A DNA stretch of 40,523 nucleotides from Clostridia bacterium (lineage in GTDB: Bacteria > Bacillota > Clostridia > Oscillospirales > SIG627): the NCBI GenBank assembly GCA_017453605.1, contig JAFTEP010000224.1, positions 1 through 40,523 on the forward strand. The letters are read 5' to 3'. The position numbers and the translations under genes are program-made. Under the pieces are notes generated by a model. The model saw nothing but the letters and a program-made list of their open reading frames with translations. It was not told where the DNA came from and did no database searches. This document shows positions 5,234 through 38,334 of the stretch, in pieces. Every line of letters starts with the position of its first letter. Positions within the stretch are counted from its first letter, which is position 1.

Positions 5234-5242
5234 GGTGAAGCT

Positions 5243-6012: not shown

Positions 6013-6042
6013 AAAACAAAAAGGACCGCGCGAACGCGGTCC
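6013..6042 (-). terminator. intrinsic terminator after the 117-aa gene
   Basis: Hairpin GGACCGCG-TTCG-CGCGGTCC followed on the minus strand by a TTTTTGTTTT run, 25 nt downstream of the stop at 6067. Confidence 0.7.
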
Positions 6043-6066
6043 GGGCGGGGGGGAGATATTCGTTTG

Positions 6067-6420: not shown

Positions 6421-6502
6421 TTTATTATTTTGTAATTGTCAATTTTTTTGTACACAAGTTACAAACAAGATCTCCAAAACAACAAAAAGACCACTCCATT
6501 TT

Positions 6503-7486
6503 TCATCCTCCGTATTTTTCCGCCGCGGTCTGCAGGCGTTTTTTTATACTGTCGACGAGAGTCTGCGGGGAGGTGACGGTGACGTATCCCGCGTACTGCA
6601 TCGCCCAGTGCTCCATCGCCATGGGGCTGACCTTGACCGAGACCCTGATCTTGCCGTCGCCGCAGGAGCTCACGAAAATATTCCTGCCGAACCAGTCGAT
6701 TATCTGGTCGATCACGCTCTCGTCCGCGACGAACTCCACCATCTCCGGCTTGTCTGTATACATATACGGCAGAGCCGTTGAAAGCTCCCTGTAGTCGATC
6801 CCGTCCCTGAAGCCTTCGACTTTGTTGATCGGCACGAGCTTTTCCTCGGTCAGCGTCATATTCGTTATGCGGTCGAGCCTGTAGAAAGAAAGATTTTTCC
6901 ACTGCTCATTCCTTGCCATCAGATAATAGCGCTGATTGTGCAGTATGAGCTGATACGGGCTCGCCTGATGAGTGAACGTCTTGTGGAGCTTCTTGTCGAT
7001 CCCGTATTTGTTGTAATCGAAACGGATCTGCTTTTTCTGCTCTATCGCCTCGTCGACCATCTCGATGTTGAAAAAGAACGCCGGGTTTTCGGTCTTTTCC
7101 CATTCCTGGACGGAATGGACGTGTTTGACGTGGGAGCGGAAATGTTTGCTCGAGAGACCGCAGAGCTTGTTTATCAGATCCTTTGAATATTTCGCTGAAA
7201 TGTATTTGCTTGAAAGAACGCCGTCTATCAGCACTCTGAGCTCGGAGTCCGTGAAATCCCTGCTGTTGATGTAGCTTCCCTCGCGGCAGGAAACTATCTC
7301 AAAGCCCGCCTCTCTAAGAGTGGAGATATTGCGGCTGACGGCCTTGCGCTCGATATCGAGCCCGTATTCCTCCCTCAGATATCCCGCGATCTGTTCCTGA
7401 GTCATGGGATGCGCCGGATCGCTGTATTTCTGCAGGATCTGCATCTGCCTTAAAAGCGCGAGTTTTTTCGGTTCGATTACGTCCAT
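6503..7486 (-). CDS. WYL-domain transcriptional regulator (wHTH-WYL-WCX architecture)
   Basis: N-terminal HTH (MTQEQIAGYLREEYGLDIERKAVSRNISTLREAGF), then a WYL core (RYYLMARNEQWKNLSFYRLDRITNM), then a C-terminal extension. GGAGGGG RBS. Confidence 0.85.
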   Translation of the reverse strand: MDVIEPKKLALLRQMQILQKYSDPAHPMTQEQIAGYLREEYGLDIERKAVSRNISTLREAGFEIVSCREGSYINSRDFTDSELRVLIDGVLSSKYISAKYSKDLINKLCGLSSKHFRSHVKHVHSVQEWEKTENPAFFFNIEMVDEAIEQKKQIRFDYNKYGIDKKLHKTFTHQASPYQLILHNQRYYLMARNEQWKNLSFYRLDRITNMTLTEEKLVPINKVEGFRDGIDYRELSTALPYMYTDKPEMVEFVADESVIDQIIDWFGRNIFVSSCGDGKIRVSVKVSPMAMEHWAMQYAGYVTVTSPQTLVDSIKKRLQTAAEKYGG

Positions 7487-28000: not shown

Positions 28001-28333
28001 GTCGGAGCCCAGAAGACGGGCGCTCTCGCTCACATATTCCTCGTAGGAAAGCGCGTAAGAGTCGCCGACGGAAAAATCCGTCACCGAGATCCCGTATTCT
28101 TCCTCAAGCTCGGTGCCCTGCTTGACGATCTCCCTCACGTCGAGAACGGCGTCCGAGGGGATGCCCGACGAGCCGTCGAACGATACCGTGACTCGGTAGT
28201 TGTTGCCGTCTGAGGCGGTCAGGGTATAGGTGCGCGTCAGCGCGGACACGGCGTACTGCAGAAGCGCGCCGAATCCGGTGAAGAGCATTATGAAGACGCA
28301 GATCAGTGAAATGATTCTTTTAGATTTTTCCAT
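19094..28333 (-). CDS. giant secreted/surface protein (3079 aa): Listeria-Bacteroides (Flg_new) repeats, lectin-like N/S/T-rich insert, Ig-like and SpaA/Cna-B-type domains; no LPXTG
   Basis: N-terminal signal/anchor MEKSKRIISLICVFIMLFTGFGALLQYAV. Many GW-type repeat signatures (FFGWY, FSGWE, LEGWY, FAGWY, FLGWY, FRGWR, FVGWD). C-terminal prealbumin-like modules (FFRKIDGFGNALPGAVFSLY, IFRKINTSFQSLSGAKFDIL). Ends ...ITAKRLSSAP with no sorting signal. Confidence 0.85.
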   Translation of the reverse strand: MEKSKRIISLICVFIMLFTGFGALLQYAVSALTRTYTLTASDGNNYRVTVSFDGSSGIPSDAVLDVREIVKQGTELEEEYGISVTDFSVGDSYALSYEEYVSESARLLGSDPKDFSLARVFDITLRDPDTNEKYQPNNAVAVRIELIDEDLENSGEEIEVVHFGEDKEIMNASVSGSTVEFKTDGFSAYVVIAHEGDEKVVTARVQFHFIDPVYHTSADSGYETLSPVEYQAGEYLFPNKGGTDQTSQILINGESLEFVKNPANRSVDDGNGGLIEQYFFGWYLVEGRFTDDGSQIIYTWSDDPMKLSFEKPITLTLPSTDPQVGDIVYWRIEDAFGSGELDEEGTVHMFLAPIYEDYYFINFHLGTKDDPNLASSLYARKMVVLGSDERVTVRIGNISSPSTNPTKYVFSGWETIDAHGFTVNRYRTVDLEGNEIDSSNTSQNGEYYATFSKSDFVEEEIDLYPVFDEARWIYFNTGRSGNGATYVPAKYRITNDDDGGTWFETLPVSKRPGYKLEGWYADAVVDSDGNILNIDTAMPVEIHYFDNAGNLQTVTENRRAYKLTQWVSDDSCAYTASNYTNSVTVGGTTHKRFTVENGKLYVYKGLESLNLYAEWTSELTPYTVVYWLQNANDDNYTLLTYEVLQGLSGTQTEATQIASNTDLYRDNKLRFCHLSEDQDKSAAGVQSGIRQQTIEGDGSTIVNVYYDRNIYTLRFDIGFARQTSTTGSTVTYTTMTPSEAASHTGTVYGVVNGAYTALIKDVDGNWIVADANGVPYGLIGSDYVPLTATVESTVHLYKPEYVYSSTSSNAESGLYGVNANGDYVELVGTPTTVPGDPVYKLTSTLTDGNEYLIVSRNNNGSGYALGHNGANYSNVGITVNAATSSINAPYISSSGVNATAVWTATANGNAWKFSNGGYFIRNNNNSSTIQISTTNDNSTNWTWDGNNNRLKSGNYSLYYRSGGGYNRFTLRSGNYTTYLYEKTDTSTTSWEYTLNGAPYTGTRYTRAKNGGSTTYPETDATHVVSRGGASYFYDAEGGYGAAGAYIPAVPAGENNTYSYSYNGNSYTGTVYPMAVYGGALYRQTTMQGTWEYFVSYVTNSADGGGYDGFLTTNRYSLGNTNPFGPSEYNGTYTTTNGGSNYIVFYYEITGKFGETIIDEYPGTQPKRVNGTNSYLFVGWIPQQDSYYWYRVSSSIKGLFETISEDLILTGGNRNTGYVNGGRTDGNPDTYTAVSISDPAHDTNTTSGEYGITQEFHCRYTTLNNSHKYLYRIYLADVDTREYPSEPTSKFVITAGSGSNPKDQTPPTYYGYTLVDTKVINNAGTELNPASNNTYGAYTVAELEAAGVGTGMIMVFRFQPNDHTLTFKDSNNNELGSYTYYYGQDLSAADDAHTQLAIENTPEGHTFAGWYENIDGVGNAFDFNRTMPDGQIVLYAIYKPVRYRVKIDPNGAEIDHVNHNYNNNGAEMNRKGYNNYWWDADGNAVSYSADAYDPSWVPFATFNRSEIYNSEGDLERAADTGYRSDQSTYFNGIYGEMVGEYALNRTYVPLSDAAAADYAANGETVYYYVNTQNLPTDGSSLPSDLRNALYMTEDELHQYYLFYRDWVKGNLQGGYISGTTLLGEAAWRNTYVSDQKYRYIFSGEHYEFLGWYEVFYDNEGNETGTSSMPYNFSTPVSGALTLRAQWRLDAGYRIHYIPEYKMEDGTIINGAMFMDQWEDPFAPGSNYADGSKTEILQQPTGLTANGLTTDEYIFRGWRLVSQSVDGGGNVVYNPLEPGKFYDPGDDFIVSAAFADKSSYIYIQAVYEEKDSSYRRPYVTDLTLDANSGYLTTGSYYEGDDLVEGTELSALRDLDWDGVGTLVMDPDTDTIAFCDIQSSVNAHLYRYSTKLTDDISGNALDPVGVNYFRHPSGYLLIGFDDLPDEGDYVATYPADSIIAVQRHEDRTIYAVWEPMVYLNIVNNTEENHGDITLSLTSTDGTALTVVNEKRGVYERIPLDSLSNIVVHQGETLRLAIPNGADKNITITGTNNLGTGYMLYWETDLNGVKDGHPAGHKENLASFSITDMLKENHSDTEKGLTVTFTTRKADKVLILDQNWNGSRTEVYFSNYSTDDNYVGLPYTLPGTGTRLAWTFVGWDEDPSLRPDIENGTDLPEYLASNADSLLIASMTDFFEAKDTDHNDVVTLYAIWSSDDKANTVRVYKLIPEPGKQDKEFDFTVSFKGSYRNDEAHINGTITERTSPVISLTNEQYMVIVTEVIDGESTGKAKVTQTIQKYGTNDQPIGSALVVTTGDINVSAVVNFYLEIKVVEAEYTNYITTSSVESEIIPDSLTTNGNLLSWTNYTTGGTVFYTNARKTAEVTVKKVLKNHPADMAFTFRGSYTLTEDGVTVTKTLQNISVLSSSSTGTAFAEKIPVGAILTVTEIADNSFDVTAAAQNGSADTDAADNVYKFTVTADETLTFTNTLKSYPVRIVLVGFDGTTTYTDVEAQFSLRADVSSIVNHKYTTPDDNLIYDGILSVGEYSLIEHWVQSGYLGLDRDVTLTVSGDDTVTSDDAMHIVITGNKTDGFLVTVYNQKTVDLSIEKTLIDPLLGSGRTFYFAVSYSNTLNGVTETVNKSGENAIALASGSRTTFTVPIGAANLTVAEEVSRRVSSSSLVTIAETYETYYRITNGSNEVVPADTGSSYTYTTVAASNDKDLISFTNKAKTVDVTVEKEVTADDTSGTFTFVATLSKGATGIPGYAIFVNGTPADDSDDVLTDASGQYSFTLRHGGTMVLTLPVGARLQVRETGLSGTTDPTLTLEDDYQTTAAAYYTAGGGYTGSTSWAENSRSYTIVSVPGDDLTLTFTNGSGGKEVFFRKIDGFGNALPGAVFSLYTSYSDAVAKGTSGRVSLTVGTTKTDTVTSATTLDVNGFNVGFKVPNGVYYMTEIGTVTGCRTNSYIYRVTVGAAGTTVEGITLPAGSDYLVERMSDSTTVDAVPDIPVYGLLNESRAERKVIFRKINTSFQSLSGAKFDILRVDMTVVASDCVSGETGAFWIGKLPYGKYYLKETEAPAGYNDAPVWFEVRVDSSGITAKRLSSAP

Positions 28334-28412
28334 CGGATATTTTCCTTATCGATCGGGATGATTTTTCTTTGTTCATCTTCGTCCGCGCCCGCCCGGCGCG
28401 AACTTTTCTTCA

Positions 28413-30617
28413 TTAATTCTTTATATTGATGATCCTGACCTCGGGCGAAGGCCAGTCGCCGAAGTGCTTTGCGACAAAATCCGTGCTTGAGACGGACGCG
28501 CCGAGCTGTTCGACTGTCAGAAGGGCGTAATCGCCCTGATAATACTGTACGAGGGACGCGTCGTATGCGGACGCGCTCTTGCGGGTGCCGGTGAGATAAG
28601 CGTTGTAGATCGCGCTGGTCTCGTCGAACGCATCTATATCCGCCGAGCCGGGATCCATGTATCTCTTGCCGTCGGCGCCTGCGTCGAGCTCGTTGACGAT
28701 CTCATAGTAGTAATTGAGATTTGAAAGCTGCGCCGATCCGGAGACTTCTGCGACGAACGCGCCGGAAGAGGCCGTGGCGTTCACAAGACCGGTCGCGTAG
28801 CAGTTCGACACGAGTCCGCCGTCTATCGCCGCCGCCAGACCTCCGGCGGCCGCTCCCTTCGCGGAGCAGGTGGAATAACTGTTGTAAACTGTCGAGCCGG
28901 TCGAGGTCCCGATGAGACCGCCCGCGCTTCCGCCCGCCGCCGTCACGTTGAAGGACGCGGGGTCGTAGGCGCCGTTTTGGGTGTGTCCGCCGGAATAGCA
29001 GGCGCTGACGGTCGCGGCTCTCGCCTCGCCGATGAGTCCGCCCGCGTCTGCGGCGATCCCTGACGAGCTGACGACCAGAGCCGCCGCGCTCTTTGTGATC
29101 TGGCTGTTCTGAGCGCGGCCGATGAGTCCGCCGACGTCTCCCGCGCCGCTTATAGTCGCGGCAGCGGAGGAACTGCTGTTGATGGCGACAACGTTGGCGA
29201 CGGTCGATCCGAGGGCCGTTCCCGCGAGGGCTCCGGCTCCCGAGGTCCCGCCCGCGATCGTGAAGTCGACGAGCTTGAGATCCCTGACTGTGTCGCCGGT
29301 CAGATCGCCGAACAGACCCGCCGACTGAGAAGAGCCGGAGGTGTCGGCGTCGATCCCGGTGATCGAACAGAGCGCGCCGTCGTAGGTCATGGTATAATCC
29401 GCGGTGTTGACCGGCTTGAATTTCGCGTCGGTGAGCTGACCGGAAGCGCCGTAGATCCTGGGGTAGACGGATGCGTTCCAGGTGAGATCGGTGGTCTGCA
29501 GGGCGCTGACCTGCTCGGAAGACGTGACGTGCTTCAGCGCGGAGTTTGTCACGTTCACCGAAGACACGGTCCGGTCGAGATTTTCGAGATGGCGGATATA
29601 CGAGACGTGCGCGGACGCCTTGTCCGAATCGTTGTATGCGAACAGACTGTTGGTCGTCTGTTTGGTGCTGTAGGCGACGTTGGTGAGTTCGCTGTTGTTG
29701 TATGCGACCGCCTGGATCGTTATATCCTCGCCGGGGATCAGAGGATCGGTCCCCGTGCAGAAAAGATCGGCAAAATGCTTTCCGGACTGAGTGATATCGT
29801 CGAGGACGATGTCTCTGTAGACGACGTTGTCGGTGTTCTCGGTCACGTCGGAGTTGGAGTAGTATTCCGAAAGACCCGCCAGAGAGAGCGTGATCTCGCG
29901 GCTGTTCTTGCTGGTCACGCCGGTGATTATGAGTTTCAGCTTCGCGTTGGGGTTGCCTTTGTTGAAATCCGTGACGGTGACGGTCAGCTTGTCGGCGTTT
30001 GTTACGACGATCTTCGGCGCCAGAAGCTCTGCGCCCTTCGTGAGGGCAGCGGCCTCGGCTCCGCCGTACCATCCGATGACGGAGCTGTCGCCGACGTAGG
30101 TCCTGAGTTCGCTCTTATGTTCTTCGCCGGTCTTGGTCATGAAGTCGGCGTAGTTGTCGGCGTAATTATGTCTGAACCGCCCGCTGTCCTCCCAGTAGAA
30201 AACGTCGAGGACCGTCGCGGCGTCGCGGTGGTAGCGGATGATATAGCAGCCGCTCGCCCTGATGTGCTCGTCGACGGCGGCGAAGGGGAGCATGAGGTCG
30301 AAAACGGTGGTCTCAAGGCTCGCGCGGTTGTTGCCGGCCTTGACGAAATAGTATACCCCCGTGTTTTTGTTTTCGGAGTCCTTTTCGGGGATGCCGAAAT
30401 CGGTGCGTCCGAGATATCCCTGGCTTTCCGCCATGGACAGATGGTTCTGCGCCGCGACGAAGATCTCCTTCGCGAATGCGTCGTATTCGAGCTTGGTCAT
30501 GGAGCGCAGGTAAGTATGGACGGCGACAAAGACAACGGCGGCGAGGATGAGCACTATCGCCACTGTAAGAAGTGCCTCCGCCAGCGTGAATCCCTTTTCG
30601 CGTCTGTTTTTGTTCAT
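28413..30617 (-). CDS. modular type IV pilin-like protein with C-terminal GLUG-repeat domain (734 aa)
   Basis: Class III signal MNKNRREKG|FTLAEALLTVAIVLILAAVVFVAV with Glu5. C-terminal GLUG-type repeats (GGLIGRAQNSQI, AGGLIGEARAATVSACYSGG, AGGLIGTSTGSTVYNSYS, GGLVSNCYATGLV). ATG at 30617 follows GGTGA; the track start at 30626 is a GTG inside the RBS. Confidence 0.8.
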   Translation of the reverse strand: MNKNRREKGFTLAEALLTVAIVLILAAVVFVAVHTYLRSMTKLEYDAFAKEIFVAAQNHLSMAESQGYLGRTDFGIPEKDSENKNTGVYYFVKAGNNRASLETTVFDLMLPFAAVDEHIRASGCYIIRYHRDAATVLDVFYWEDSGRFRHNYADNYADFMTKTGEEHKSELRTYVGDSSVIGWYGGAEAAALTKGAELLAPKIVVTNADKLTVTVTDFNKGNPNAKLKLIITGVTSKNSREITLSLAGLSEYYSNSDVTENTDNVVYRDIVLDDITQSGKHFADLFCTGTDPLIPGEDITIQAVAYNNSELTNVAYSTKQTTNSLFAYNDSDKASAHVSYIRHLENLDRTVSSVNVTNSALKHVTSSEQVSALQTTDLTWNASVYPRIYGASGQLTDAKFKPVNTADYTMTYDGALCSITGIDADTSGSSQSAGLFGDLTGDTVRDLKLVDFTIAGGTSGAGALAGTALGSTVANVVAINSSSSAAATISGAGDVGGLIGRAQNSQITKSAAALVVSSSGIAADAGGLIGEARAATVSACYSGGHTQNGAYDPASFNVTAAGGSAGGLIGTSTGSTVYNSYSTCSAKGAAAGGLAAAIDGGLVSNCYATGLVNATASSGAFVAEVSGSAQLSNLNYYYEIVNELDAGADGKRYMDPGSADIDAFDETSAIYNAYLTGTRKSASAYDASLVQYYQGDYALLTVEQLGASVSSTDFVAKHFGDWPSPEVRIINIKN

Positions 30618-30635
30618 TTCAATCACCGTTTTGAA

Positions 30636-31175
30636 TTATGTTCGGTCTGTCAGTATCCTGATTTCGAAAGTGTCTATCTCGGTCACGGTCGTATCGCCGT
30701 TCAGCACCGTGAGTCCGGTCACCGTGACGACTCCGCCGGAATAGTCGAACGCGCACGTCGTGTGCAGGTTCTTGTTCGACGCCTCGGTCGTGACCAGCAG
30801 ACGGTTGAAAGTGTCGTCCTCGATCACGTCGGTGTACTCGTGTATGTAGATGCCGGGCTTTTGCGAAACGTCCGATCCGACGATGTAGATCTTGCTTTTG
30901 CTTCCGTTGTCGCTCGTGTAGGCGATCTCGTTCTTCGCGTCGTTCACCGTGATGTCCTTGGCTGTGCCGAGCTCGTCGCGCAGGCGCGTCATCGTCGTCG
31001 AGAGGAGCACCTGGGCGTTTGCGGAAGTGACGATCTTGCTGTATGCGCTCGCGGCTGTCGGTATCCCCGCCGCCAGGACCGCGGTGACCATGAGCAGGAT
31101 CAGGATCGCCATGAGCATCTCGGCGAAGGAGAATCCGCCGCGCGAATTCAGTCGCGTTCTTATCCTTTTTGTCAT
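30636..31175 (-). CDS. prepilin-type N-terminal cleavage/methylation domain protein (pseudopilin, 179 aa)
   Basis: MTKRIRTRLNSRGG|FSFAEMLMAILILLMVTAVLAAG: Gly-1, Glu5 and a hydrophobic helix. 4-nt ATGA overlap with the upstream gene. Confidence 0.8.
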   Translation of the reverse strand: MTKRIRTRLNSRGGFSFAEMLMAILILLMVTAVLAAGIPTAASAYSKIVTSANAQVLLSTTMTRLRDELGTAKDITVNDAKNEIAYTSDNGSKSKIYIVGSDVSQKPGIYIHEYTDVIEDDTFNRLLVTTEASNKNLHTTCAFDYSGGVVTVTGLTVLNGDTTVTEIDTFEIRILTDRT

Positions 31176-31516
31176 GACGCCACCCTGTAGCTCTTCACGC
31201 TCTCGTTCTCGGAGTTCGAGTAGTAGACGACGGTGATGCTTCCCGCGCCGTCTGTGAGAGTGATCGTTTCGGAGCCTTCCTTTATGCTCACGGTGCCGGT
31301 CTCGGAGGAGCCGTTCTGCTCGACGACCGAGCGGTCCGCGCTGACGTAGTCGGCGACCTTTTCCCTGCTGTTGGAGATCATCGTCGAGGAGGCGTTTATC
31401 ATTCCCGCGAGAAGAACGATCGCGAGCGAGGAGACGAGCAGGGCGATCAGGATTTCGGAAAGGCTTTCGCCGCGGACGTCCTTTAACTTTTTGAGGATCT
31501 TAGGGGTTCGTTTCAT
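31172..31516 (-). CDS. prepilin-type pseudopilin (114 aa)
   Basis: MKRTPKILKKLKDVRG|ESLSEILIALLVSSLAIVLLAG: Gly-1, Glu at +5 and a hydrophobic helix. Overlaps the upstream gene by 17 nt. Confidence 0.7.
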   Translation of the reverse strand: MKRTPKILKKLKDVRGESLSEILIALLVSSLAIVLLAGMINASSTMISNSREKVADYVSADRSVVEQNGSSETGTVSIKEGSETITLTDGAGSITVVYYSNSENESVKSYRVAS

Positions 31517-32321
31517 TTGTCGCCGATGCCTCCTTTCTCAGACTTCCGACCGACCATTTGATCACGGAAGTTTCTTCCAGGACGGTCGTCCTTTCATAGG
31601 TCTGTATATATCCGCTTGAGGTCTGTCTCGTTCTCGTGCCGTCCGAGGAGGTCGTCTTTTCGGTCTCGTTGACCTCCGGGATCAGGGTGAGGATGACGCT
31701 GTAGCTGTCTTTTTCCGCGCCGTCCGTTATCCTCAGGACGAGCGTCCCGTCCGACTTCATGCTCCAGAAGACTTCGGCGTCAAGACTGCTGTCCGAGTGG
31801 GACACGGTGAACTTGCCTCCGCTCTCGGAGTTGGAGAAGGAATATCCCATCGCGGCTTCGTTGTTGCAGGAGGCGGATCCGAAGAGCAGATGCACGGCGC
31901 GCGCCGTGAGGAAACTCAGATCGGCGGTCGAAAGGAGGTAGTCGGGCGAGGAATATTCGACGGAACCTACTGTCGTTTTATAATTGTATTCGACGTTATC
32001 GACGGGGGTTCCGGGCGAAACGTTCTCGGCGCCGTCGACGATCGAAACGGTGTACGGCGTTTCGGTCGCGTTCAGAGTGGTTTTGGTGCGGACGATCTTC
32101 ACTTCTTTCCCGCAGAGCAGATCCTCGAGCAGTTCGGCGGCGGAAGAAACTTTGTAATATCTCTGATCCGATTCGACGAGCCCGCTCATCCTTCCGGCGG
32201 ACGCGGTCGCCGCGGTGAGGACCACGGCTCCGATGACTGCGCAGACAAGGAACAGTAGAAGTGCCATCGAAAGAGAAGCGCCCTTGTTAGATCTCAGTTT
32301 TTCGATAATAGGTTTGCCCAT
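31500..32321 (-). CDS. pilin-like protein lacking Glu5 (GspK/PilX/ComGG-like cap candidate, 273 aa)
   Basis: MGKPIIEKLRSNKG|ASLSMALLLFLVCAVIGAVVL has Met instead of Glu at +5. I prefer the ATG at 32321; the 33-aa extension to 32420 has no RBS and is non-pilin-like. Confidence 0.65.
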   Translation of the reverse strand: MGKPIIEKLRSNKGASLSMALLLFLVCAVIGAVVLTAATASAGRMSGLVESDQRYYKVSSAAELLEDLLCGKEVKIVRTKTTLNATETPYTVSIVDGAENVSPGTPVDNVEYNYKTTVGSVEYSSPDYLLSTADLSFLTARAVHLLFGSASCNNEAAMGYSFSNSESGGKFTVSHSDSSLDAEVFWSMKSDGTLVLRITDGAEKDSYSVILTLIPEVNETEKTTSSDGTRTRQTSSGYIQTYERTTVLEETSVIKWSVGSLRKEASATNETNP

Positions 32322-32430
32322 CGTGATAATTATACCTTTCCGACGCACTCCAAAAACCATTCTGTCGGCGTCGCTGAAAATCGTTTGAACATTTTTATCC
32401 ATAGTATAATAGTTCAGCATACTACTATAA

Positions 32431-32738: not shown

Positions 32739-33989
32739 ATGGCATACAGCGAGCTTATAAAGAATTTCGGCAGGATCCGCGATTATATGCGCGAGTTTTA
32801 CGTTTACGGCTTCAAGAGCCGGGACGAATACACGCTCAAAAGCGCCAGATCCTACGACGACGAGCGGAGGCGGCTGGAAAGCTGGCTCGGCGACTATATG
32901 GGATTCAGGCAGACCCCCGACGGGAAGAAAGTGTTTCTTTCCATCGACAGCAGGATCTGCCGTCACAATCCGCTTTACAAGGCGTGGAAGGCGAAGAGCT
33001 TCACAGACGGCGACATAACTCTGCACTTTCTCTTGTTCGATATCCTCTGTTCACCTGAGATCAGCCTGACCCTGAACGAGCTGACCCAAAAACTCGACGA
33101 ATATCTTGAATTTTTCGGCGGGCCGAGGACCTTCGACGTCTCCACCGTCCGCAAAAAGCTCAAAGAATACGTTTCGGAGGGGATAATCGTCGCCGAAAAG
33201 CGCGGGAAGACGCTTTGCTACCGCCGCGCCGAGGGCGATCTCACGTTCGATCCCGACGCGCTCGCGTTCTTTTCGGAGGTCGCGCCGGTCGGAGTCGTCG
33301 GCTCGTACCTTCTCGACAAACAAAGCCCCTCCCCCGACCGCTTCGCCTTCAAGCATCACTACATAACAGGGGCGCTCGACAGCGAGATCGTCTGTCAGCT
33401 CCTGGACGCTGTATCTTCCGGGCGGTATATCACTCTCGGGACCGTGAACCGCAGGAAGGACAGGCTCTCGGAAAGCCGCGTCGTGCCGCTCAGGATATTC
33501 ATAAGCGTGCAGAGCGGCAGACACTATCTGATGGCGTTCGCGCCTCGATTCAGGCGCATCACCTCCTACCGGATCGACAACATCCTTTCCGTGAAAGAGG
33601 ACGAGGTCTGCCCGGAGTTCGGCGAGCTGAAACAGAGGCTCGAAGAGATGGAGCCGCATATCTGGGGAGTCAGCACTCAGGGCGGATCGGGCGAGCGGAT
33701 AGAGCACGTCGAGTTCACCGTGAGATATTCTCCCGAGGAGCCATTCATACATCAGCGGCTCGAGCGCGAGAAGCGCTGCGGAAAAGTCGAAAGGCTTTCG
33801 GACACTTCGAGCAGATTTTCCGCCGACGTTTATGACGCGACCGAGCTGGTCCCGTGGATCAGGACCTTCATCTGCCGCATAACCGACGTGAGTTTTTCCG
33901 ACAAGGCGCTCGAAAGAAGGTTCAGGCAGGATATTCTGGATATGTACGCGCTCTACGGCTTGGGATCGGAAGGCGGTGACGGGAAATGA
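32739..33989 (+). CDS. WYL-domain protein A (N-terminal YGFKSR-type region + wHTH, WYL, WCX-like C-terminus)
   Basis: WYL core GRHYLMAFAPRFRRITSYRIDNILSV. The ATG at 32739 lies 5 nt after AGGTGA; the track start at 32730 is a GTG inside the RBS. Confidence 0.75.
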   Translation: MAYSELIKNFGRIRDYMREFYVYGFKSRDEYTLKSARSYDDERRRLESWLGDYMGFRQTPDGKKVFLSIDSRICRHNPLYKAWKAKSFTDGDITLHFLLFDILCSPEISLTLNELTQKLDEYLEFFGGPRTFDVSTVRKKLKEYVSEGIIVAEKRGKTLCYRRAEGDLTFDPDALAFFSEVAPVGVVGSYLLDKQSPSPDRFAFKHHYITGALDSEIVCQLLDAVSSGRYITLGTVNRRKDRLSESRVVPLRIFISVQSGRHYLMAFAPRFRRITSYRIDNILSVKEDEVCPEFGELKQRLEEMEPHIWGVSTQGGSGERIEHVEFTVRYSPEEPFIHQRLEREKRCGKVERLSDTSSRFSADVYDATELVPWIRTFICRITDVSFSDKALERRFRQDILDMYALYGLGSEGGDGK

Positions 33990-34894
33990 TCTTCAGCGAG
34001 CTTTACGGCGCCTACTACAACACGGTCGCGCGCCTTCTGAAAGCGGCGGTCGCGACCCCTCTCACCAAGAGCGATATACGGCGGATAACCGGGGAGACCG
34101 CGTTCGGCGAAAGCATTCTGAACATAGAGCCTGCGATCACGGAGGGAAGATGGCAGCTGATACGCCCGGACGGCGCCACGCCGATCCGCAGCGCGCCGAC
34201 GATGCCGCTCACGACCCTCGAAAAGCGCTGGCTGAAAGCGGTCTGCCTTGATCCGAGGATGAAGCTCTTTTACGACGAGCCGCCCGAGATCGGGGACGTC
34301 GAGCCGCTGTTTTCGCCCGGCGATATCTCGGTGTTCGACAGATATTCCGACGGCGATCCGTATGAGGACGAGGGCTACATCGCCCGCTTCCGGCTTATCC
34401 TGGACGCGATAAGAAAAGAATACCCGATCAAAATAGAAATGACCAACCGCAAGGGCGGCGTGTCGCGCTTCGTGATGCTGCCGGATCACCTGGAATATTC
34501 CGAAAAGGACGACAAGTTCAGGCTTCTGGGCTCCGGCAACAGATCCGGCAGGACCGTGAACGTCGGGAGGATAACAAAGTGCGAGGCGTATCCCGGAAAG
34601 CTCTCGTTTTCGACGCCGGCGCCTCAGGACGAAAAGGAAACGATCGAATTTATCCTGACCGACAAGAGGAACGCCCTCGAGCGCGCGCTCTTACATTTCG
34701 CGCACTTTGAGAAGCAGGCGAAAAGGATAGACGAAACGCACTATTCGGTCGGCCTGACCTACGACAAACCGGACGAAACGGAGCTTGTCATCCGCGTTCT
34801 GTCCTTCGGACCGATGATAAAGGTGACCTCTCCCGAGAGCTTCGTCGGGCTGATAAAAGAAAGGCTTGAAAAACAAAAAAGCTGCGGACTCTGA
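33986..34894 (+). CDS. WYL-domain protein B (paralogue, translationally coupled to A)
   Basis: WYL core IKIEMTNRKGGVSRFVMLPDHLEYSEKDDKFRLLGSGNRSGRTVNVGRITKCE with a WCX-like C-terminus. 4-nt ATGA overlap with protein A. Confidence 0.7.
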   Translation: MIFSELYGAYYNTVARLLKAAVATPLTKSDIRRITGETAFGESILNIEPAITEGRWQLIRPDGATPIRSAPTMPLTTLEKRWLKAVCLDPRMKLFYDEPPEIGDVEPLFSPGDISVFDRYSDGDPYEDEGYIARFRLILDAIRKEYPIKIEMTNRKGGVSRFVMLPDHLEYSEKDDKFRLLGSGNRSGRTVNVGRITKCEAYPGKLSFSTPAPQDEKETIEFILTDKRNALERALLHFAHFEKQAKRIDETHYSVGLTYDKPDETELVIRVLSFGPMIKVTSPESFVGLIKERLEKQKSCGL

Positions 34895-34913
34895 CGGGTT
34901 CGCAGCTTTTTTT
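34875..34913 (+). terminator. intrinsic terminator after the WYL pair
   Basis: A-run, stem GCTGCG ... CGCAGC spanning the stop codon, then T7. Confidence 0.7.
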
Positions 34914-34915
34914 CC

Positions 34916-34944
34916 GTGATTTTTCCGAAAAAAGGTGTTAAAAT
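34916..34944 (+). promoter_or_regulatory. candidate promoter for the structured leader / DUF2828-RtcB transcript
   Basis: -35 GTGATT (34916-21), 17-nt spacer, extended -10 TGTTAAAAT (34936-44). The predicted TSS near 34951 is just before the first RNA module. Confidence 0.45.
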
Positions 34945-34959
34945 TTCCTCGCAAACCAA

Positions 34960-35036
34960 AAGACGCCGACAGCGACAAAAATGTATTGGCAACGGATCGT
35001 CACGATCCCTGCGGGTTCAAGCCCCGGAGGCGTCTT
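34960..35036 (+). ncRNA. structured RNA module 1 (77 nt) with T-arm-like hairpin
   Basis: 8-bp closing stem AAGACGCC/GGCGTCTT. Internal 6-bp hairpin GGATCG-TCA-CGATCC. T-arm-like hairpin GCGGG-TTCAAGC-CCCGG, with one G-G mismatch, stacks directly on the closing stem. Confidence 0.4.
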
Positions 35037-35041
35037 GAAAA

Positions 35042-35095
35042 AAGACACGCACAGCAAAGATTGCCGGATCAGATTTTGAGGATTTAACGTGTCTT
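35042..35095 (+). ncRNA. structured RNA module 2 (54 nt hairpin domain)
   Basis: 8-bp closing stem AAGACACG/CGTGTCTT enclosing 38 nt that include a small GCAA-AGA-TTGC hairpin. Confidence 0.3.
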
Positions 35096-35103
35096 GTTTC
35101 TGT

Positions 35104-35175
35104 ACGCCGGGAGTTCAGCGGCAGAGCGGGAGCCTTGAAACTCCCGTAAGGCGGGTCCGACTCCCGCTCGGCGTC
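35104..35175 (+). ncRNA. tRNA-like cloverleaf (72 nt) with 8-nt anticodon loop; candidate Y-RNA-like tRNA mimic
   Basis: 7-bp acceptor stem ACGCCGG/TCGGCGT. D-arm GTTC-AGCGGCA-GAGC with A14, G18G19 and A21. Anticodon arm GGGAG-CCTTGAAA-CTCCC. 5-nt variable loop. T-arm GCGGG-TCCGACT-CCCGC. Deviations from a real tRNA: G8, C55, no nucleotide 26, an 8-nt anticodon loop and no CCA. Confidence 0.5.
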
Positions 35176-35186
35176 ACAAAAATCCA

Positions 35187-35269
35187 AAGGCGCGGACAGC
35201 AATAGTGATGACAGCTGAAAAAGCAGGTGACTGAAAATCGCCGTTCGCGGATCATATCCGACGCGCCTT
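35187..35269 (+). ncRNA. structured RNA module 4 (83 nt), may be part of the DUF2828 mRNA 5' UTR
   Basis: 8-bp closing stem AAGGCGCG/CGCGCCTT ending 40 nt before the start codon. Contains small internal hairpins such as GGAT-CAT-ATCC. Confidence 0.3.
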
Positions 35270-35309
35270 GAAACATTTTTCATAAAAGTCAGAACAAGAG
35301 GTGATAAAA

Positions 35310-36800
35310 ATGCTCGAATACTTAAAGAATGAAGCGAATATGACCCAGACCGAGAACGGAGCGGCAACTTATCTGTCGACGGGCTCCGACTGCCTCGACC
35401 TCTTCGCGACCGTCGGCGCGCTCCGCCGCGAAAACGAAGAGAAGATCGAAAACGCATTCGTGCGCGCATTCGCCGAAAACCCCGACCTCGCGATGAAGAT
35501 CCTGTTCTTCGCAAGAGACGTCCGCGGCGGGCTCGGCGAGAGGCGCGTCTTCAGGGTCGCGCTGAGACGTTTCAGTTTTTTCAAGCCCGAAAGCGTAAAA
35601 AAGAATCTTCCCTACGTCGCCGAGTTCGGCCGCTTCGACGACCTGCTCACGCTCATCGGCACCTCCTGCGAAAACGAAGCTCTTGATCTCATCAAAGAGC
35701 AGTTTGGCAGGGACAGGGACGCCATGGAAAAAGACAAGCCCGTTTCGCTTCTTGCAAAATGGCTGCCGTCCGTGAACGCGTCGAACGCCGAAACAAAAAA
35801 GCTCGGCAAAAAGATCGCGAAAGCGCTCGGGCTGAGTGAGGCGGAATACAGAAAAACTTTCGCCGCGCTCAGAAAAAAGATCCGCATAATCGAAAATAAC
35901 CTCCGCGAGAGGGACTACACCTTCGATTACTCGGCTCAGCCCTCGAGAGCCCTTTTCAAGTACAAAAGCGCGTTCTACCGCAACGACGGGGAAAGGTACA
36001 GAGAATTTCTGAAGAAAGCCGCGTCGGGCGAAGCCGTGCTCCACGCCGACAACGTCTCGCCCTACGAGCTTGTCGAGCCTTATCTTGAAAAAAACTGGTT
36101 CAGCGGCATGAAAAGCTTCGCAAGGTCCGCGAGCCCCGGGGAGCAGGAGACTCTAAACGCGACCTGGGCGGCTCTTCCCGATTTCGGCGGCGACGGGAAC
36201 GCCCTCGCCGTGATCGACACCTCGGGCTCCATGTACTGGGCGGCATCTCCCGTTCCCGCCTCCGTCGCGCTCTCGCTCGGACTGTATTTTGCTGAAAGAA
36301 ACAAGGGCGCGTTTGGAAACCACTTCATAGAGTTCTCCGCCGATCCTCAGCTCATCGAGCTCAAGGGCGAGACCTTCTTCGACAGGCTGACCTACGCCGC
36401 GTCCTTCAATCAGGTCGCGAACACCGACCTGGAGGCGGTGTTCGATCTCGTTCTCAACGCGGCTCTCAAAAACGGAGTGCCTCAGGAGGAATTGCCCGCG
36501 AAGCTCGTCATCGTCTCCGATATGGAGTTTGACCAATGCGTTGATAACGCGAATGAACTCAATTTCGCCAACGCGAAGAAGAAATACGAAGCGCACGGCT
36601 ACAGGCTTCCGCAGATAGTCTTCTGGAACGTCGCCGCCAGACATCGCAATCAGCCCGTCAGTCTCAACGAACAGGGCGTCGCGCTCGTTTCGGGCGTCAC
36701 TCCGCGCCTGTTCGGAATGGTCGCGGGAGAGCTCGAATCGCCATACGCCTTTATGCTCGAGGTGCTGGGAAGCGAACGCTACGAAAGGATCTCGGCGTGA
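35310..36800 (+). CDS. DUF2828-family vWA protein (Ro60/TROVE-like candidate RNA-binding protein)
   Basis: N-terminal TENGAATYLSTGSDCLDLF and AKWLPSVNAS signatures of DUF2828. C-terminal vWA domain with MIDAS VIDTSGSM. The ATG at 35310 lies 5 nt after AAGAGGTGA; the track start at 35301 is a GTG in the RBS. Confidence 0.75.
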   Translation: MLEYLKNEANMTQTENGAATYLSTGSDCLDLFATVGALRRENEEKIENAFVRAFAENPDLAMKILFFARDVRGGLGERRVFRVALRRFSFFKPESVKKNLPYVAEFGRFDDLLTLIGTSCENEALDLIKEQFGRDRDAMEKDKPVSLLAKWLPSVNASNAETKKLGKKIAKALGLSEAEYRKTFAALRKKIRIIENNLRERDYTFDYSAQPSRALFKYKSAFYRNDGERYREFLKKAASGEAVLHADNVSPYELVEPYLEKNWFSGMKSFARSASPGEQETLNATWAALPDFGGDGNALAVIDTSGSMYWAASPVPASVALSLGLYFAERNKGAFGNHFIEFSADPQLIELKGETFFDRLTYAASFNQVANTDLEAVFDLVLNAALKNGVPQEELPAKLVIVSDMEFDQCVDNANELNFANAKKKYEAHGYRLPQIVFWNVAARHRNQPVSLNEQGVALVSGVTPRLFGMVAGELESPYAFMLEVLGSERYERISA

Positions 36801-36861
36801 GGCGGCGCCCCGCTCTCCGGGCGGGGCGTACTGCCGGATCATCAAAAAAAGGATAAGTATT

Positions 36862-38133
36862 ATGTTTGAAATAAAAGGCAAAATCAACACGGCGATCTGC
36901 TACGCGAAGGTCGTGGAGGACAGCGCGATAGAGCAGATAAAAAGGATGTGCGACTATGAGCTGACCTCCGGCAGCCGGATCAGGATCATGCCCGACGTCC
37001 ACTCCGGGAAGGGCTGCACCATCGGGACCACGATGACCGTGACCGACAAGGCGTGCCCCAACATAGTCGGGGTAGATATAGGCTGCGGTATGTACACAGT
37101 GAAGCTCGAAGAAAAAGAGGCCGATCTGACTAAGATAGACCAGGCCGCGCACTTTATACCCTCCGGGATGAACACCTGGGAGGGACGGATAGAGAAATTC
37201 GATCTGACCGGGCTGAAATGCTTCCGCTCTCTGAAGGATTCCAGAAGGCTCGAACGCTCTCTCGGCACCCTCGGCGGCGGCAACCACTTCATCGAGATCG
37301 ACAGGGCGTCCGACGGGAGCCTGTATCTTGTGATCCACTCGGGGAGCAGGAATCTCGGCAAGCAGGTCGCGGAGATCTATCAGCAAATCGCCGTCGACCT
37401 GCACAGCGGCAAGGAAGAATACTTCAACAGAAGAAATGAGGTCATCGAGACCTACAAGGCACAGGGCAGACGCGCCGAGATCCAGGACGCGCTCAAAAGC
37501 CTCGCTGAGGAATACAAAAAAAGAGAGGCTGACGCGCCGGAGGATCTGTGCTGGCTCTACGGAGACTTTCTCAAAGACTACCTGAACGACGTCGCGATAT
37601 GTCAGGATTTTGCGCGCCGCAGCAGGGAGAAGATGGCCGGGATCATGCTCGAAAAGACCGGGCTGAGGGCTGTCGAAGCTTTCCACACCGTTCACAACTA
37701 CATAGACACCTCCGAAATGATCCTCAGAAAGGGCGCGATCGCCGCGCACGCCGGCGAAAAGGTGCTGATCCCGATAAACATGCGCGACGGCTCCGTTCTC
37801 GCCGTCGGGAAAGGCAATCCCGAATGGAACTTCTCGGCTCCCCACGGAGCGGGAAGGCTCATGTCGAGGAGCAGGGCGAGAGAGGAGATAGACCTGGAGG
37901 CGTACAAGGCGTCTATGGAGGGGATCTATACCACATCCGTCAGCCTCAGCACCATCGACGAGGCTCCCATGGCGTATAAATCCATCGACGATATAATCGA
38001 CGTGATAAGAGGATCGGTCGACGTCGTCGATATAATGAAGCCCGTCTACAACTTCAAGGCGTCCGGCGACGATGTCCCCTGGAAGAAAAAGAGCCCGGAG
38101 GACGACGCCGATCTTTCTGCGGATGACGCTTGA
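36862..38133 (+). CDS. rtcB: RNA 3'-phosphate/2',3'-cyclic-phosphate ligase RtcB
   Basis: RtcB signatures MPDVHSGKG, VGVDIGCGM, GGGNHFIEI, HSGSRNLG, HNYI, PINMRDG and APHGAGR. Confidence 0.9.
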   Translation: MFEIKGKINTAICYAKVVEDSAIEQIKRMCDYELTSGSRIRIMPDVHSGKGCTIGTTMTVTDKACPNIVGVDIGCGMYTVKLEEKEADLTKIDQAAHFIPSGMNTWEGRIEKFDLTGLKCFRSLKDSRRLERSLGTLGGGNHFIEIDRASDGSLYLVIHSGSRNLGKQVAEIYQQIAVDLHSGKEEYFNRRNEVIETYKAQGRRAEIQDALKSLAEEYKKREADAPEDLCWLYGDFLKDYLNDVAICQDFARRSREKMAGIMLEKTGLRAVEAFHTVHNYIDTSEMILRKGAIAAHAGEKVLIPINMRDGSVLAVGKGNPEWNFSAPHGAGRLMSRSRAREEIDLEAYKASMEGIYTTSVSLSTIDEAPMAYKSIDDIIDVIRGSVDVVDIMKPVYNFKASGDDVPWKKKSPEDDADLSADDA

Positions 38134-38143
38134 AATAAAAGAA

Positions 38144-38174
38144 ATTTTGCCGCCGGGATCCCGGCGGCAAAATC
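38144..38174 (+). terminator. intrinsic terminator after rtcB
   Basis: 14-bp stem ATTTTGCCGCCGGG / CCCGGCGGCAAAAT. A T6 run follows at 38185-38190. Confidence 0.65.
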
Positions 38175-38233
38175 ATCCCGGATCCTTTTTTAACCTCCCG
38201 CGTTCTCCGTATAAAAACCATTCTGTTTGACTG

Positions 38234-38276
38234 AAAGCGCGTTTTTTCTTGCAGATCGCGTGAAAAAACGCGCTTT
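38234..38276. terminator. 15-bp inverted repeat, probable terminator between convergent rtcB and topB
   Basis: AAAGCGCGTTTTTTC ... GAAAAAACGCGCTTT with a 13-nt loop. The stems themselves carry the A/T runs. Confidence 0.5.
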
Positions 38277-38334
38277 TGTATGTTTTTCCGGTGATTTTTG
38301 CGGGGAAACGGGGGTTTGAGAGACGGGGGATCAC

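Follow-up and report, generated by a model that had tools for sequence, protein, structure and literature searches.

We have analysed a metagenomic contig from a Clostridia bacterium (JAFTEP010000224.1; the whole 40.5-kb stretch of 40,523 nt is referred to here as the window). On its + strand, at 32.7–38.2 kb, it carries an operon in which two WYL genes are followed by a terminator, a promoter, ~320 nt of structured RNA, a gene for a DUF2828/DUF7788 protein and rtcB. We conclude that this locus probably (with a likelihood that we would put at roughly 60%) encodes a divergent, RtcR-independent ribonucleoprotein system of the Ro60/Y-RNA/RtcB type under PafBC-like WYL control. This reading is carried by the identities of the genes, the Ro60-like fold of the DUF2828 protein, a covarying RNA frame in its leader, a co-occurrence of protein and RNA that is found from either side, and linkage to RtcB, WYL proteins and tRNA arrays. 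A homologue search places the closest relatives of the locus in gut and rumen Clostridia (Oscillospiraceae and Ruminococcaceae).

WYL1 (32739–33989, +) is the larger of the two WYL proteins (Pfam WYL, E-value of 9.8e-6; PADLOC WYL, 2.1e-12), and its gene overlaps by 4 nt with that of WYL2 (33986–34894, +; PADLOC WYL, 2.3e-7; Pfam WCX, 17.8 bits, below the cutoff). The DUF2828 and DUF7788 domains of the third protein (35310–36800, +) are matched in Pfam with E-values of 3.4e-31 and 2.2e-42, respectively, and its start codon, the ATG at 35310, agrees with the N-termini of its homologues. The last gene (36862–38133, +) encodes an RtcB RNA ligase (Pfam RtcB PF01139, E-value of 4.9e-57). Its translation shows the motifs DIGCG, GGNHF, HSGSR, HN and PHGAGR, which we take to be the metal-binding and guanylylation motifs of RtcB; every match to an NCBIfam subfamily is below the respective cutoff. 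An earlier note on this DNA had assigned the same open reading frames (ORFs) and domains, and had listed several motifs of the DUF2828 protein. Both agree with our analysis: TENGA, STGSxCLDLF, AKWLPS and the D-T-S-G-S of the MIDAS (metal ion-dependent adhesion site) can all be read in the protein and fall on columns that do not vary when 30–33 homologues are aligned. RtcA and archease are not encoded among the four ORFs of the operon, as the same note had pointed out.

A conserved RNA frame precedes DUF2828 genes

For comparison, we assembled 80 loci (one genome per species; Clostridia, Synergistaceae, Planctomycetes and others) with DUF2828 homologues that are 52–69% identical. The gap between the upstream gene and the DUF2828 gene ranges from 230 to about 1,200 nt among these loci. 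Nearly every one of them contains tandem modules that are closed by a common frame, 5′-AA(A/G)(A/G)(C/T)(A/G)C-N-N-ACAGCAA-(insert of 25–140 nt)-N′-G(C/T)(G/A)(C/T)(C/T)TT-G-3′, and the number of modules varies from 1 to 6 or more. The ACAGCAA frame was found in 78 of 81 sources. Counted with a pattern for its 5′ half only, the frame occurs 217 times on the gene strand of the leaders (98.9 kb in total). Outside the leaders, 609 kb of that strand contain 18 occurrences, and the opposite strand has 6. The leader frames thus all lie within 1.3 kb upstream of a DUF2828 gene and on its strand, which is the kind of adjacency expected of YrlA-type RNAs.

The 5′ motif is followed within 20–200 nt by a 3′ strand that pairs with it at 7 or more of the 8 positions in 212 of the 217 cases, compared to ~82 expected when the 5′ stem is shuffled, and a G directly follows the 3′ strand in 203 of these 212 frames. 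Among 150 distinct frames, the closing stem is paired at 97.7%, a value that is partly circular because the 3′ partner was picked for its complementarity; the independent evidence comes from the shuffled-stem control and from the diversity of the pair types. Five of the eight stem pairs display compensatory changes, with 258 double-change cells compared to 79±20 after shuffling, a number that was reached in 0 of 500 shuffles. When the stem partners are slid against each other, pairing falls to 30–56%. The conserved structure and covariation that the earlier note had expected of homologous leaders are therefore present. The strand specificity, together with the G-U pairs in the stems, indicates that the frame is a feature of the RNA.

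Three other explanations for the frame were considered and rejected. DNA-level inverted repeats are ruled out by the strict strand specificity and the G-U pairs. In a CRISPR-like repeat-spacer array, the variable eighth position of the stem would not be expected to covary within the module as it does, rather than across the linker; additionally, the inserts are conserved tRNA-like bodies and there are no cas genes. A riboswitch or attenuator is hard to reconcile with modules that differ in copy number and position.

The leader of the window contains four back-to-back modules, M1–M4 (34960–35270), which form an array of ~320 nt upstream of the start codon at 35310. The earlier note had described such an array, one module of which was said to be a tRNA-like cloverleaf, and had stressed that these RNAs precede the Ro-type gene; all of this is borne out, the cloverleaf being M3. 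The frame is carried by M1, M2 and M4, which were located by the frame search, and not by M3. M1 (34960–35037, +) has the frame AAGACGCC-G-ACAGCGA ... GGCGTCTT-G around a 6-bp hairpin and a T-arm-like hairpin (CGGG-UUCAAGC-CCCG). It folds with −29.5 kcal/mol (z-score of −2.62) and shows a weak Rfam match to the tRNA-like mascRNA (16.2 bits). M2 (35042–35096, +; AAGACACG-C-ACAGCAA ... CGTGTCTT-G) has a short insert whose inner fold is non-significant by itself (z-score of −0.94), and its sole support is the conserved frame. M4 (35187–35270, +; AAGGCGCG-G-ACAGCAA ... CGCGCCTT-G) encloses a degenerate tRNA-like body with a canonical 7-nt loop of the anticodon type (GGUGA-CUGAAAA-UCGCC, 'GAA'). 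It folds with −28.0 kcal/mol (z-score of −2.41) and is matched by nhmmer to a module of the related locus L009.

M3 (35104–35175, +) is an unframed tRNA-like cloverleaf between M2 and M4. Its acceptor stem has 7 bp, its D and T arms are canonical, its anticodon loop measures 8 nt, and CCA is not encoded. In a sensitive scan of the leader it scores 28.9 bits against the Rfam tRNA family (RF00005; threshold of 29, E-value of 5e-4), and ARAGORN draws it as a perfect cloverleaf only at the relaxed setting -ps95. Its homologues in loci L025, L029, L031 and L037 are likewise unframed, with anticodons AAA, UAAA, AUA and UGA. M3 thus departs from a canonical tRNA in its sub-threshold score, its 8-nt anticodon loop and an anticodon that is not conserved among homologues.

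At default settings, ARAGORN reports no tRNA in the window. Rfam at gathering thresholds gives no match in the window and only tRNAs, with no YrlA, in 15 related loci; the best score against YrlA (RF02553) in the window is 15.9 bits compared to a gathering threshold of 69. Single-sequence folding gives z-scores of −2.4 for the whole leader and −1.8 for M3. As folding beats the shuffled controls only modestly, a single sequence would not carry the RNA claim, and the real support is comparative, from the frame and its covariation.

The DUF2828 protein is structurally similar to Ro60

An AlphaFold2 model of the DUF2828 protein, built from 33 sequences, consists of an N-terminal half of α-helical repeats and a vWA domain with a MIDAS motif, whose residues (Asp303, Ser305, Ser307, Thr372 and Asp404) are invariant among homologues. 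A Foldseek comparison with the PDB returned Ro60/TROVE structures as all of the top 11 matches, over ~520–550 columns and thus the full length of the protein, with E-values of 1e-6 to 9e-5 and a probability of 1.00. These include Ro60 proteins from Thermus phage phiLo, Xenopus, human and Deinococcus, and matches to the vWA domain only rank after them. At the sequence level, where the relation is faint, hhalign with diverse profiles aligns residues 241–476 with residues 311–538 of human Ro60 (77.8% probability, E-value of 1.9e-5), a region that covers the helix preceding the vWA domain, the vWA domain with its MIDAS and the C-terminus. For these profiles, phage DUF2828 sequences were added on one side, and 18 TROVE proteins (Ro60 from PDB alignments and bacterial Rsr from a database search) were used on the other. 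The protein also matches PHROG 850, 'RNA-binding protein', with 432 bits.

All 30 family members that we compared match PF11443 and PF25043, while true Rsr proteins carry PF05731 and PF25045. The earlier note had proposed that a different vWA family occupies the position of Ro in an analogue of the Rsr system. The first part stands, as the Pfam family is indeed not TROVE. The second can be refined: the TROVE-like fold, which the same note had suggested looking for, makes DUF2828 a distant structural relative of Ro60 itself, and the system a divergent branch and not an independent analogue.

The family comprises 7,932 clusters at 50% identity (E-value ≤1e-3). With tblastn, we found homologues in 706 phage records, among them those of Felixounavirus and of Mycobacterium, Listeria, Staphylococcus, Enterococcus, Campylobacter and Vibrio phages. 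In these phage records the DUF2828 proteins are labelled 'Ro-like RNA binding protein' or 'RNA-binding protein'. Phage annotators are thus already aware that the family is Ro-like; this is missing from Pfam, as it is from the Y-RNA survey by Chen et al. 2014 (PMC4201824), whose starting point was TROVE-annotated proteins. Among the best viral matches of Foldseek in BFVD are DUF2828/DUF7788 proteins from giant viruses of eukaryotes (Pithovirus, Marseillevirus, Mimiviridae and Cafeteria roenbergensis virus), and plant DUF2828 proteins appear in papers on other subjects. The family therefore reaches well beyond bacteria and phages.

Framed RNAs accompany DUF2828 genes in phages

Framed modules adjoin or accompany the DUF2828 gene in six of seven phage loci (six genera) from hosts of different phyla. 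Three modules each are found immediately downstream of the gene in Mycobacterium phage UPIE and Staphylococcus phage S-CoN_Ph13, and two (Campylobacter phage CJLB-7) or one (Enterococcus phage VRE9_4) immediately upstream of it. Felixounavirus AYO145A has 2–3 modules within a tRNA array, and Sinorhizobium phage phiN3 has two, 1.3–2 kb upstream of the gene; none is present within ±2.5 kb of the gene in Vibrio phage D486. The stems of the phage modules differ, while ACAGCAA and the trailing G persist. Module 2 of UPIE has the topology of YrlA and scores 39.8 bits against the Rfam model (threshold of 69). Neither WYL nor RtcB genes are present within the fetched flanks of the seven loci. Small genes annotated as 'hypothetical protein' overlap framed modules in S-CoN_Ph13 (L084, 4007–4096) and CJLB-7 (L085, 2367–2504), and these are probably miscalled RNA genes.

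The search was also made in the opposite direction, starting from the RNA. A frame-only pattern matched at least 120 stretches of viral contigs, 80 of which were fetched. A DUF2828 homologue is present in 38 of these 80, on the same strand as the RNA in all 38 and mostly 35–460 nt away. Genes for tRNA are found in 65 of the 80 stretches, 60 of which have at least 3 and up to 25 in about 12 kb. Some frames lie kilobases from the gene or inside the tRNA arrays. As a control, three canonical TROVE loci were inspected. Their leaders contain tRNA arrays and split tRNA-like RNAs with the repeated motif CTTGCYC...GGGTTATC, and ACAGCAA frames were not found in them. In each of these Rsr loci (L088, L089 and L091; 2300–3000), the tRNA array and tRNA-like RNAs of 120–156 nt with a long insertion precede rsr. 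The RNAs of the TROVE loci score only 30–32 bits against YrlA, which suggests that many Y-like RNAs of true Ro60 proteins escape the current Rfam model.

The constant unit is thus the DUF2828 protein with the framed RNA, usually amid tRNA genes, and RtcB and the WYL pair are frequent accessories of the cellular loci. LeBron, a relative of UPIE, encodes an RNA ligase and a polynucleotide kinase, and its gp53, which is related to the UPIE DUF2828 protein, is moderately toxic on overexpression (PMC13148394), an observation that is only loosely supportive.

Linkage to RtcB and to a pair of WYL proteins

RtcB is linked to DUF2828 in 44 of the 80 cellular loci, in both Clostridia and Synergistaceae, so that the linkage noted earlier in this genome extends well beyond it. 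In 35 loci rtcB comes directly after the DUF2828 gene, in 8 it lies upstream on the same strand, and in one it is found at another place of the fetched stretch; loci that lack it have no substitute gene. The gene order varies (RNA-RtcB-DUF2828 in L025, RtcB-RNA-DUF2828 in L037), and the components remain together.

The WYL pair is present in 55 of the 80 loci, mostly directly upstream, and WYL2 always comes immediately after WYL1. It is located downstream of DUF2828 in two loci and is divergent in several others (the loci with atypical placement are L047, 3667–5788; L060, 5645–7806; and L014, L024, L036, L072, L074, L077, L078 and L080). This variable placement fits a separately transcribed regulator. 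In the operon of the window, WYL genes indeed stand in the place of RtcR, as had been proposed: its four ORFs include neither rtcA nor an RtcR of the CARF/sigma-54 type, and the promoter is of the sigma-70 type.

Searches of the PDB with WYL1 or WYL2 as single sequences gave nothing useful. A WYL1 profile from 14 sequences finds PafB, PafC and PafBC as its best matches there, with E-values of 0.003–0.28. The weak Pfam matches within this family are to PaaX (7 of 14), Penicillinase_R (4 of 14) and WCX (5 of 14; best E-value of 0.0028). WYL1 appears to consist of a conserved N-terminal domain of ~100 residues, a weakly detected winged helix-turn-helix (wHTH), the WYL domain and a weakly detected WCX. 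Pairwise comparison of WYL1 and WYL2 gave no significant similarity. By analogy with PafBC, WYL1 is predicted to be the sensor or regulator subunit and WYL2 its partner subunit.

Promoter, conserved box and terminators

The WYL pair ends in an intrinsic terminator (34875–34913, +), a 17-bp hairpin (34875–34912) followed by U7 (−24.5 kcal/mol, z-score of −4.65), whose 3′ arm and T-run form a conserved box, TCGCAGC-T7 (34900–34913). The predicted promoter follows directly (34914–34944, +). It consists of CCGTGA, which includes part of a weak −35 element (GTGATT, 34916–21), a spacer and an extended −10 element (TGtTAAAAT, 34936–34944). The terminator and the TGn-extended −10 element had both been noted before and are present as described. 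A generic sigma-70 scan of the window did not report this promoter. Its architecture is conserved across loci: the box TCGCAR-N-T(4–9), usually followed by CCRTGA, lies upstream of the RNA array in 60 of the 81 loci, compared to 5 matches elsewhere on the + strand and 3 on the − strand, and its sequence is kept even where the 5′ arm of the terminator differs. A TAnnnT hexamer begins 25–27 nt past the T-run in 54 cases, and the first RNA module begins 39–48 nt past it in about 36 loci. The spacing in the window (25 nt from the T-run to the −10 hexamer and 46 nt to M1) matches that of the family exactly. The fixed spacing of box, −10 element and module across loci lends comparative support to the promoter. 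Promoters that depend on PafBC likewise combine an upstream box and a good −10 element with a poor −35 element. The TCGCARC-T7 box is a good candidate for the sequence that the WYL pair binds.

The operon ends in a perfect 13-bp GC-rich palindrome (38144–38173; −23.5 kcal/mol, z-score of −4.15), which was assigned by a terminator scan to the − strand. The earlier note had placed a single 3′ terminator here. The hairpin is present, but the U-run is not directly after it on the + strand, where a T6 follows ~20 nt downstream. Between rtcB and the convergent topoisomerase III gene (38143–38280), the palindrome is accompanied by a second small hairpin with a T-run (38257–38273), and the two genes probably share a bidirectional terminator region.

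Inserts of the frame and true tRNA arrays

The framed inserts are frequently tRNA-like. Hairpins of the tRNA type, with 5 bp and a 7-nt loop (T-loops or anticodon-type Y-U-NNN-R loops), are found in 68 of 206 distinct inserts, compared to 2.1 expected by shuffling. Some inserts in related loci are full D/anticodon/T cloverleaves that score 30–53 bits against the Rfam tRNA model, and the D, anticodon and T arms covary among 26 tRNA-like modules; other inserts are plain hairpins. A CUUUUAA ('UUU') hairpin occurs in six related loci (L052, L060, L061, L063, L069 and L073), and further hairpins of the anticodon type have UCG, UGU and UAU. Because the anticodons vary among close homologues and no CCA is encoded, the module RNAs are mimics of tRNA rather than decoders.

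In the clostridial modules, the normal D-anticodon-T order is retained. Permuted bodies, in which an anticodon-type hairpin is followed by the T arm, a closed acceptor hairpin and the D arm (the topology of YrlA), are present in planctomycete loci (L049, 2900–3404; L068, 2999–3314) and in several phages (framed modules at L081, 6517–6636; L082, 7390–7513; L087, 1031–1146). The site at which the frame joins the tRNA-like body thus appears to differ between lineages.

True, high-scoring tRNA genes fill or extend the position of the array in four loci, interspersed with framed modules. L034 has 14 of them (1144–3836), L051 and L053 have eight each (about 2390–3965), and in L055 (5847–7528) the tRNAs and RtcB come after the DUF2828 gene. 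Their isotypes include Lys, Glu, Asp, Asn, Arg, His, Gly and Ile, among others.

Proposed mechanism

In the mechanism that we propose, the promoter just past the terminator of the WYL pair would drive a single transcript, the first ~320 nt of which would be tandem small RNAs: M1, M2 and M4, each closed by the AAGRCNC/GNGYCTT stem with ACAGCAA on its 5′ side and a G after its 3′ strand, and M3 as a free cloverleaf. The array would be cut into individual RNAs. The helical ring and vWA/MIDAS domain of the DUF2828 protein are predicted to bind the frame, as Ro60 binds the conserved stem of Y RNA. The variable inserts (tRNA-like bodies, T arms and anticodon-type hairpins) would then serve as working ends that link the particle to tRNA-handling factors or to broken tRNAs. 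RtcB joins 3′-phosphate or 2′,3′-cyclic phosphate ends to 5′-OH ends; co-transcribed here, it could reseal 2′,3′-cyclic phosphate/5′-OH cuts, most likely in the anticodon loops of tRNAs. The WYL proteins would form a PafBC-like pair that binds the TCGCARC-T7-CCRTGA box and activates the operon on a signal of nucleic-acid damage, the role of RtcR in Salmonella.

Beyond the gene identities, the fold, the frame and the linkage, this scheme is modelled on what has been learnt from Salmonella and Deinococcus (PMC7790460, PMC4201824) and from phiLo Ro60 (PMC12135203). It is by extension from these that we infer transcription and processing of the array, binding of the frame by DUF2828, what the WYL pair senses and where on the DNA it binds, and tRNA as the substrate of repair. 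A role in the RNA damage response or in counter-defence against ribotoxins, as proposed in the earlier note, is plausible. Three variants of the function fit the data alike: a decoy or sponge for anticodon nucleases, a tether for an exonuclease, and the servicing of tRNA arrays in phages.

Several observations weigh against the Ro-type reading. The confidence of the structural model is moderate (pLDDT of 71.9, predicted TM-score of 0.55), and TM-scores to Ro60 structures are 0.36–0.52. The hhalign alignment leaves out the N-terminal helical half, and shallow profiles give a probability of only 5%. Pfam TROVE (PF05731) and vWA_Ro60 (PF25045) are unmatched in the 30 family members even at an E-value of 10, and a DUF2828 profile finds no match among PDB sequences at E-values up to 10. 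The frame was found via a hand-made explicit pattern with controls, not a calibrated covariance model, and 42 of the 80 viral stretches show no DUF2828 gene within the stored DNA. RtcB is not adjoining in 36 of the 80 cellular loci and in nearly all phage loci, which means that ligation is not obligatory for the particle. Finally, the wHTH of WYL1 is weakly detected, with ArsR/SmtB matches at residues 107–187 (E-values of 0.1–0.3), and WYL2 barely matches any model.

Alternative interpretations

The particle could instead be built for decoy and repair. Displayed on the Ro-like ring, the framed RNAs would act as tRNA or anticodon-arm baits that titrate anticodon nucleases or signal their presence, whether these come from toxins, phage defence or competitors; the WYL pair would sense baits or tRNAs that had been cleaved, RtcB would reset them, and in phages the particle would protect the phage tRNA array. 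Many inserts do present canonical 5-bp/7-nt hairpins of the anticodon type (GAA in M4, UUU in six loci, and UCG, UGU and UAU), and the way in which their anticodons differ among otherwise close homologues argues against decoding. The true tRNAs of L034, L051 and L053 are those for Lys, Glu, Asp, Asn, Arg, His and Gly, which are typical targets of anticodon nucleases, and frames occur within phage tRNA arrays. However, hairpins of the tRNA type are present in only about a third of the inserts, M2 has none, and no nuclease gene is linked. The data also fit a decoy and a tether or scaffold alike. We regard this specific function as rather unlikely.

A second possibility, which we consider improbable, is RNA quality control or decay of the kind carried out by Rsr, Y RNA and PNPase in Deinococcus. 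The framed RNAs would tether the ring to a host exonuclease that acts on misfolded or damaged structured RNAs, including faulty products of the tRNA arrays, and RtcB would be only loosely coupled. This is the only mechanism known to have been demonstrated for a bacterial Ro60 (Chen et al. 2013, cited through PMC4201824 and PMC7790460), and phiLo Ro60, the closest structural match, assembles with host PNPase through its Yrl RNAs (PMC12135203). The absence of RtcB from most phage loci and from 45% of the cellular loci would also be accommodated. Against it, RtcB is the only enzyme that is repeatedly linked, and in both gene orders, while neither PNPase nor any other nuclease is. The tRNA-like inserts also seem unlike the PNPase-binding loop of Yrn1, with which no direct comparison was made.

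That the leader is purely a cis-acting 5′ untranslated region, an attenuator or tRNA sensor controlling DUF2828 and rtcB rather than a source of trans-acting RNAs, is very improbable. The modules do lie between promoter and coding sequence on the same strand, with no terminator before the gene, but their number varies from 1 to 6 or more among loci, they are downstream of the gene in UPIE and the Staphylococcus phage and kilobases off or inside tRNA arrays elsewhere, RtcB is inserted between array and DUF2828 in some loci, and no conserved expression platform adjoins the start codon. Equally slight is the chance that the modules are decaying tRNA genes or repeats from a phage-derived tRNA island next to a vWA protein with a role unrelated to RNA: true tRNA arrays at the same position in some loci and the abundance of the DUF2828 family in phages would suit this idea, but the frame belongs to no tRNA, is conserved from Clostridia to actinophages, covaries and is strictly strand-specific, the context in the window is chromosomal and free of phage genes, and DUF2828 matches Ro60 over its full length, beyond the vWA domain.

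Returning to the divergent Ro60/Y-RNA/RtcB-type system, a broader view of it may be offered tentatively. DUF2828 and the ACAGCAA-framed RNAs could constitute a second, very large family of Ro-type ribonucleoproteins devoted to a programmable display of tRNA or anticodon-arm mimics. Together with a PafBC-like WYL sensor and RtcB, this display might work in cells as a decoy-sense-repair circuit against anticodon nucleases, and during infection by virulent phages (Felixounavirus, Listeria, Staphylococcus and Enterococcus phages and cluster L mycobacteriophages) might shield or service the tRNA array.

Genomic neighbourhood

The neighbourhood of the operon is chromosomal and without phage genes, and includes genes for c-di-GMP and two-component signalling, for pseudopilins and for a surface protein of 3,079 residues. 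The latter contains SpaA and Listeria-Bacteroides repeat domains and is encoded in a cluster at 19094–32420 (−) beside four proteins that each have a prepilin-type N-terminus or an N-methylation motif; one of the four is a 737-residue GLUG-motif protein. The cluster has the appearance of a large locus for a pilus or adhesin and lies directly upstream of the WYL pair. A third WYL protein (6503–7486, −; Pfam WYL, E-value of 3e-12; WCX, 2.8e-6) is encoded ~1.3 kb from a 680-residue AAA ATPase (3118–5160, −), with short ORFs in between. This region (3118–7486) could form a WYL-regulated unit of its own, with no relation to the operon described here.

Significance and comparison with known systems

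The job of bacterial Ro60 and Y RNAs beside RtcB is a standing question; what Rsr and the Y RNAs do was not addressed by Hughes et al. 2020 (PMC7790460). DUF2828 provides a parallel branch whose anatomy is clearer: the frame is strictly conserved, and its shortness makes it readily mutated, the proposed working ends are modular and often recognisable as tRNA arms, the copy number is variable, and a putative regulator and its box are defined. Function is testable in tractable phage-host models, such as Felixounavirus on E. coli or Salmonella, cluster L mycobacteriophages on M. smegmatis, and Listeria and Staphylococcus phages. For annotation, about 8,000 clusters of DUF2828 proteins could be renamed, and hundreds of small RNAs have been missed. 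The branch also ties Ro-type particles to the tRNA arrays of phages, which are under active study as counter-measures to anticodon nucleases.

The general concept of a Ro-type protein with tRNA-like RNAs and RtcB is already known. The ACAGCAA-framed RNA class, its arrays, the partnership with DUF2828, and the WYL pair with its box appear to be undescribed. Rfam 15 has no family that matches the framed RNAs, and a full-text literature search for 'DUF2828' returned unrelated papers only. Part of this may be covered by Burroughs & Aravind 2016 (NAR 44:8525), reportedly a survey of Rot/TROVE scaffolds in RtcB systems.

The long tRNA arrays of Anabaena, which are co-regulated with rtcB under translational stress and for which a sponge or replacement role of the extra tRNAs has been proposed (PMC8421152), and those of phages similarly combine extra tRNA or tRNA-like genes and RtcB with stress or conflict. 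In contrast to the framed modules, they consist of true tRNAs, and neither framed RNAs nor a Ro-like protein have been reported with them.

PafBC, the mycobacterial heterodimeric WYL activator (PDB 6sj9, 7p5x), resembles the WYL pair as two tandem WYL proteins and as the closest solved relatives of WYL1. The target promoter here also has the conserved upstream box, the good −10 element and the poor −35 element. However, the similarity is confined to the WYL domain (E-value of 0.003), WYL1 has an extra conserved N-terminal region of ~100 residues, and WYL1 and WYL2, unlike PafB and PafC, are not detectably similar to each other.

Ro60 of Thermus phage phiLo (PDB 9l5y; PMC12135203) is the best structural match of the DUF2828 protein (E-value of 1.2e-6, TM-score of about 0.5). 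It is small (460 residues), and its Y-like RNAs, Yrl1 and Yrl2, are encoded directly upstream, like the leader RNAs here. It differs in that it has no detectable sequence relation to DUF2828, in the CGAA-containing bulge of the Yrl RNAs and in the lack of RtcB and WYL genes.

YrlA (RF02553; PMC4201824), like the framed RNAs, is a same-strand neighbour of a Ro-type gene whose 5′ and 3′ ends form a conserved stem while the remainder mimics tRNA. The permuted order of T arm, closed acceptor hairpin and D arm is shared by modules of UPIE, phiN3, Felixounavirus and the planctomycetes. In contrast, all framed RNAs score below the threshold of the family, and they have ACAGCAA and the AAGRCNC/GNGYCTT-G stem where YrlA has GNCGAA(N)G (PMC4201824). 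Additionally, the clostridial frame takes the place of the acceptor stem on a tRNA-like body of normal order, and simple hairpins make up many of the inserts.

The RtcR-regulated rsr-yrlBA-rtcBA operon of Salmonella Typhimurium (Chen et al. 2013, 2014; Hughes et al. 2020, PMC7790460) differs from the present locus in several respects. Here, the protein belongs to Pfam DUF2828/DUF7788 instead of TROVE/vWA_Ro60; the RNAs come before the gene, in arrays that can reach six or more, and carry the ACAGCAA frame rather than the YrlA motif; RtcA is absent; and a WYL pair at a promoter of the sigma-70 type takes the place of the CARF/sigma-54 activator. Despite these differences, the two have the same general plan, in which a Ro-type ring-plus-vWA protein, tRNA-mimicking RNAs and RtcB form one co-oriented unit, with a dedicated sensor-regulator encoded alongside and a link, here a proposed one, to tRNA damage.

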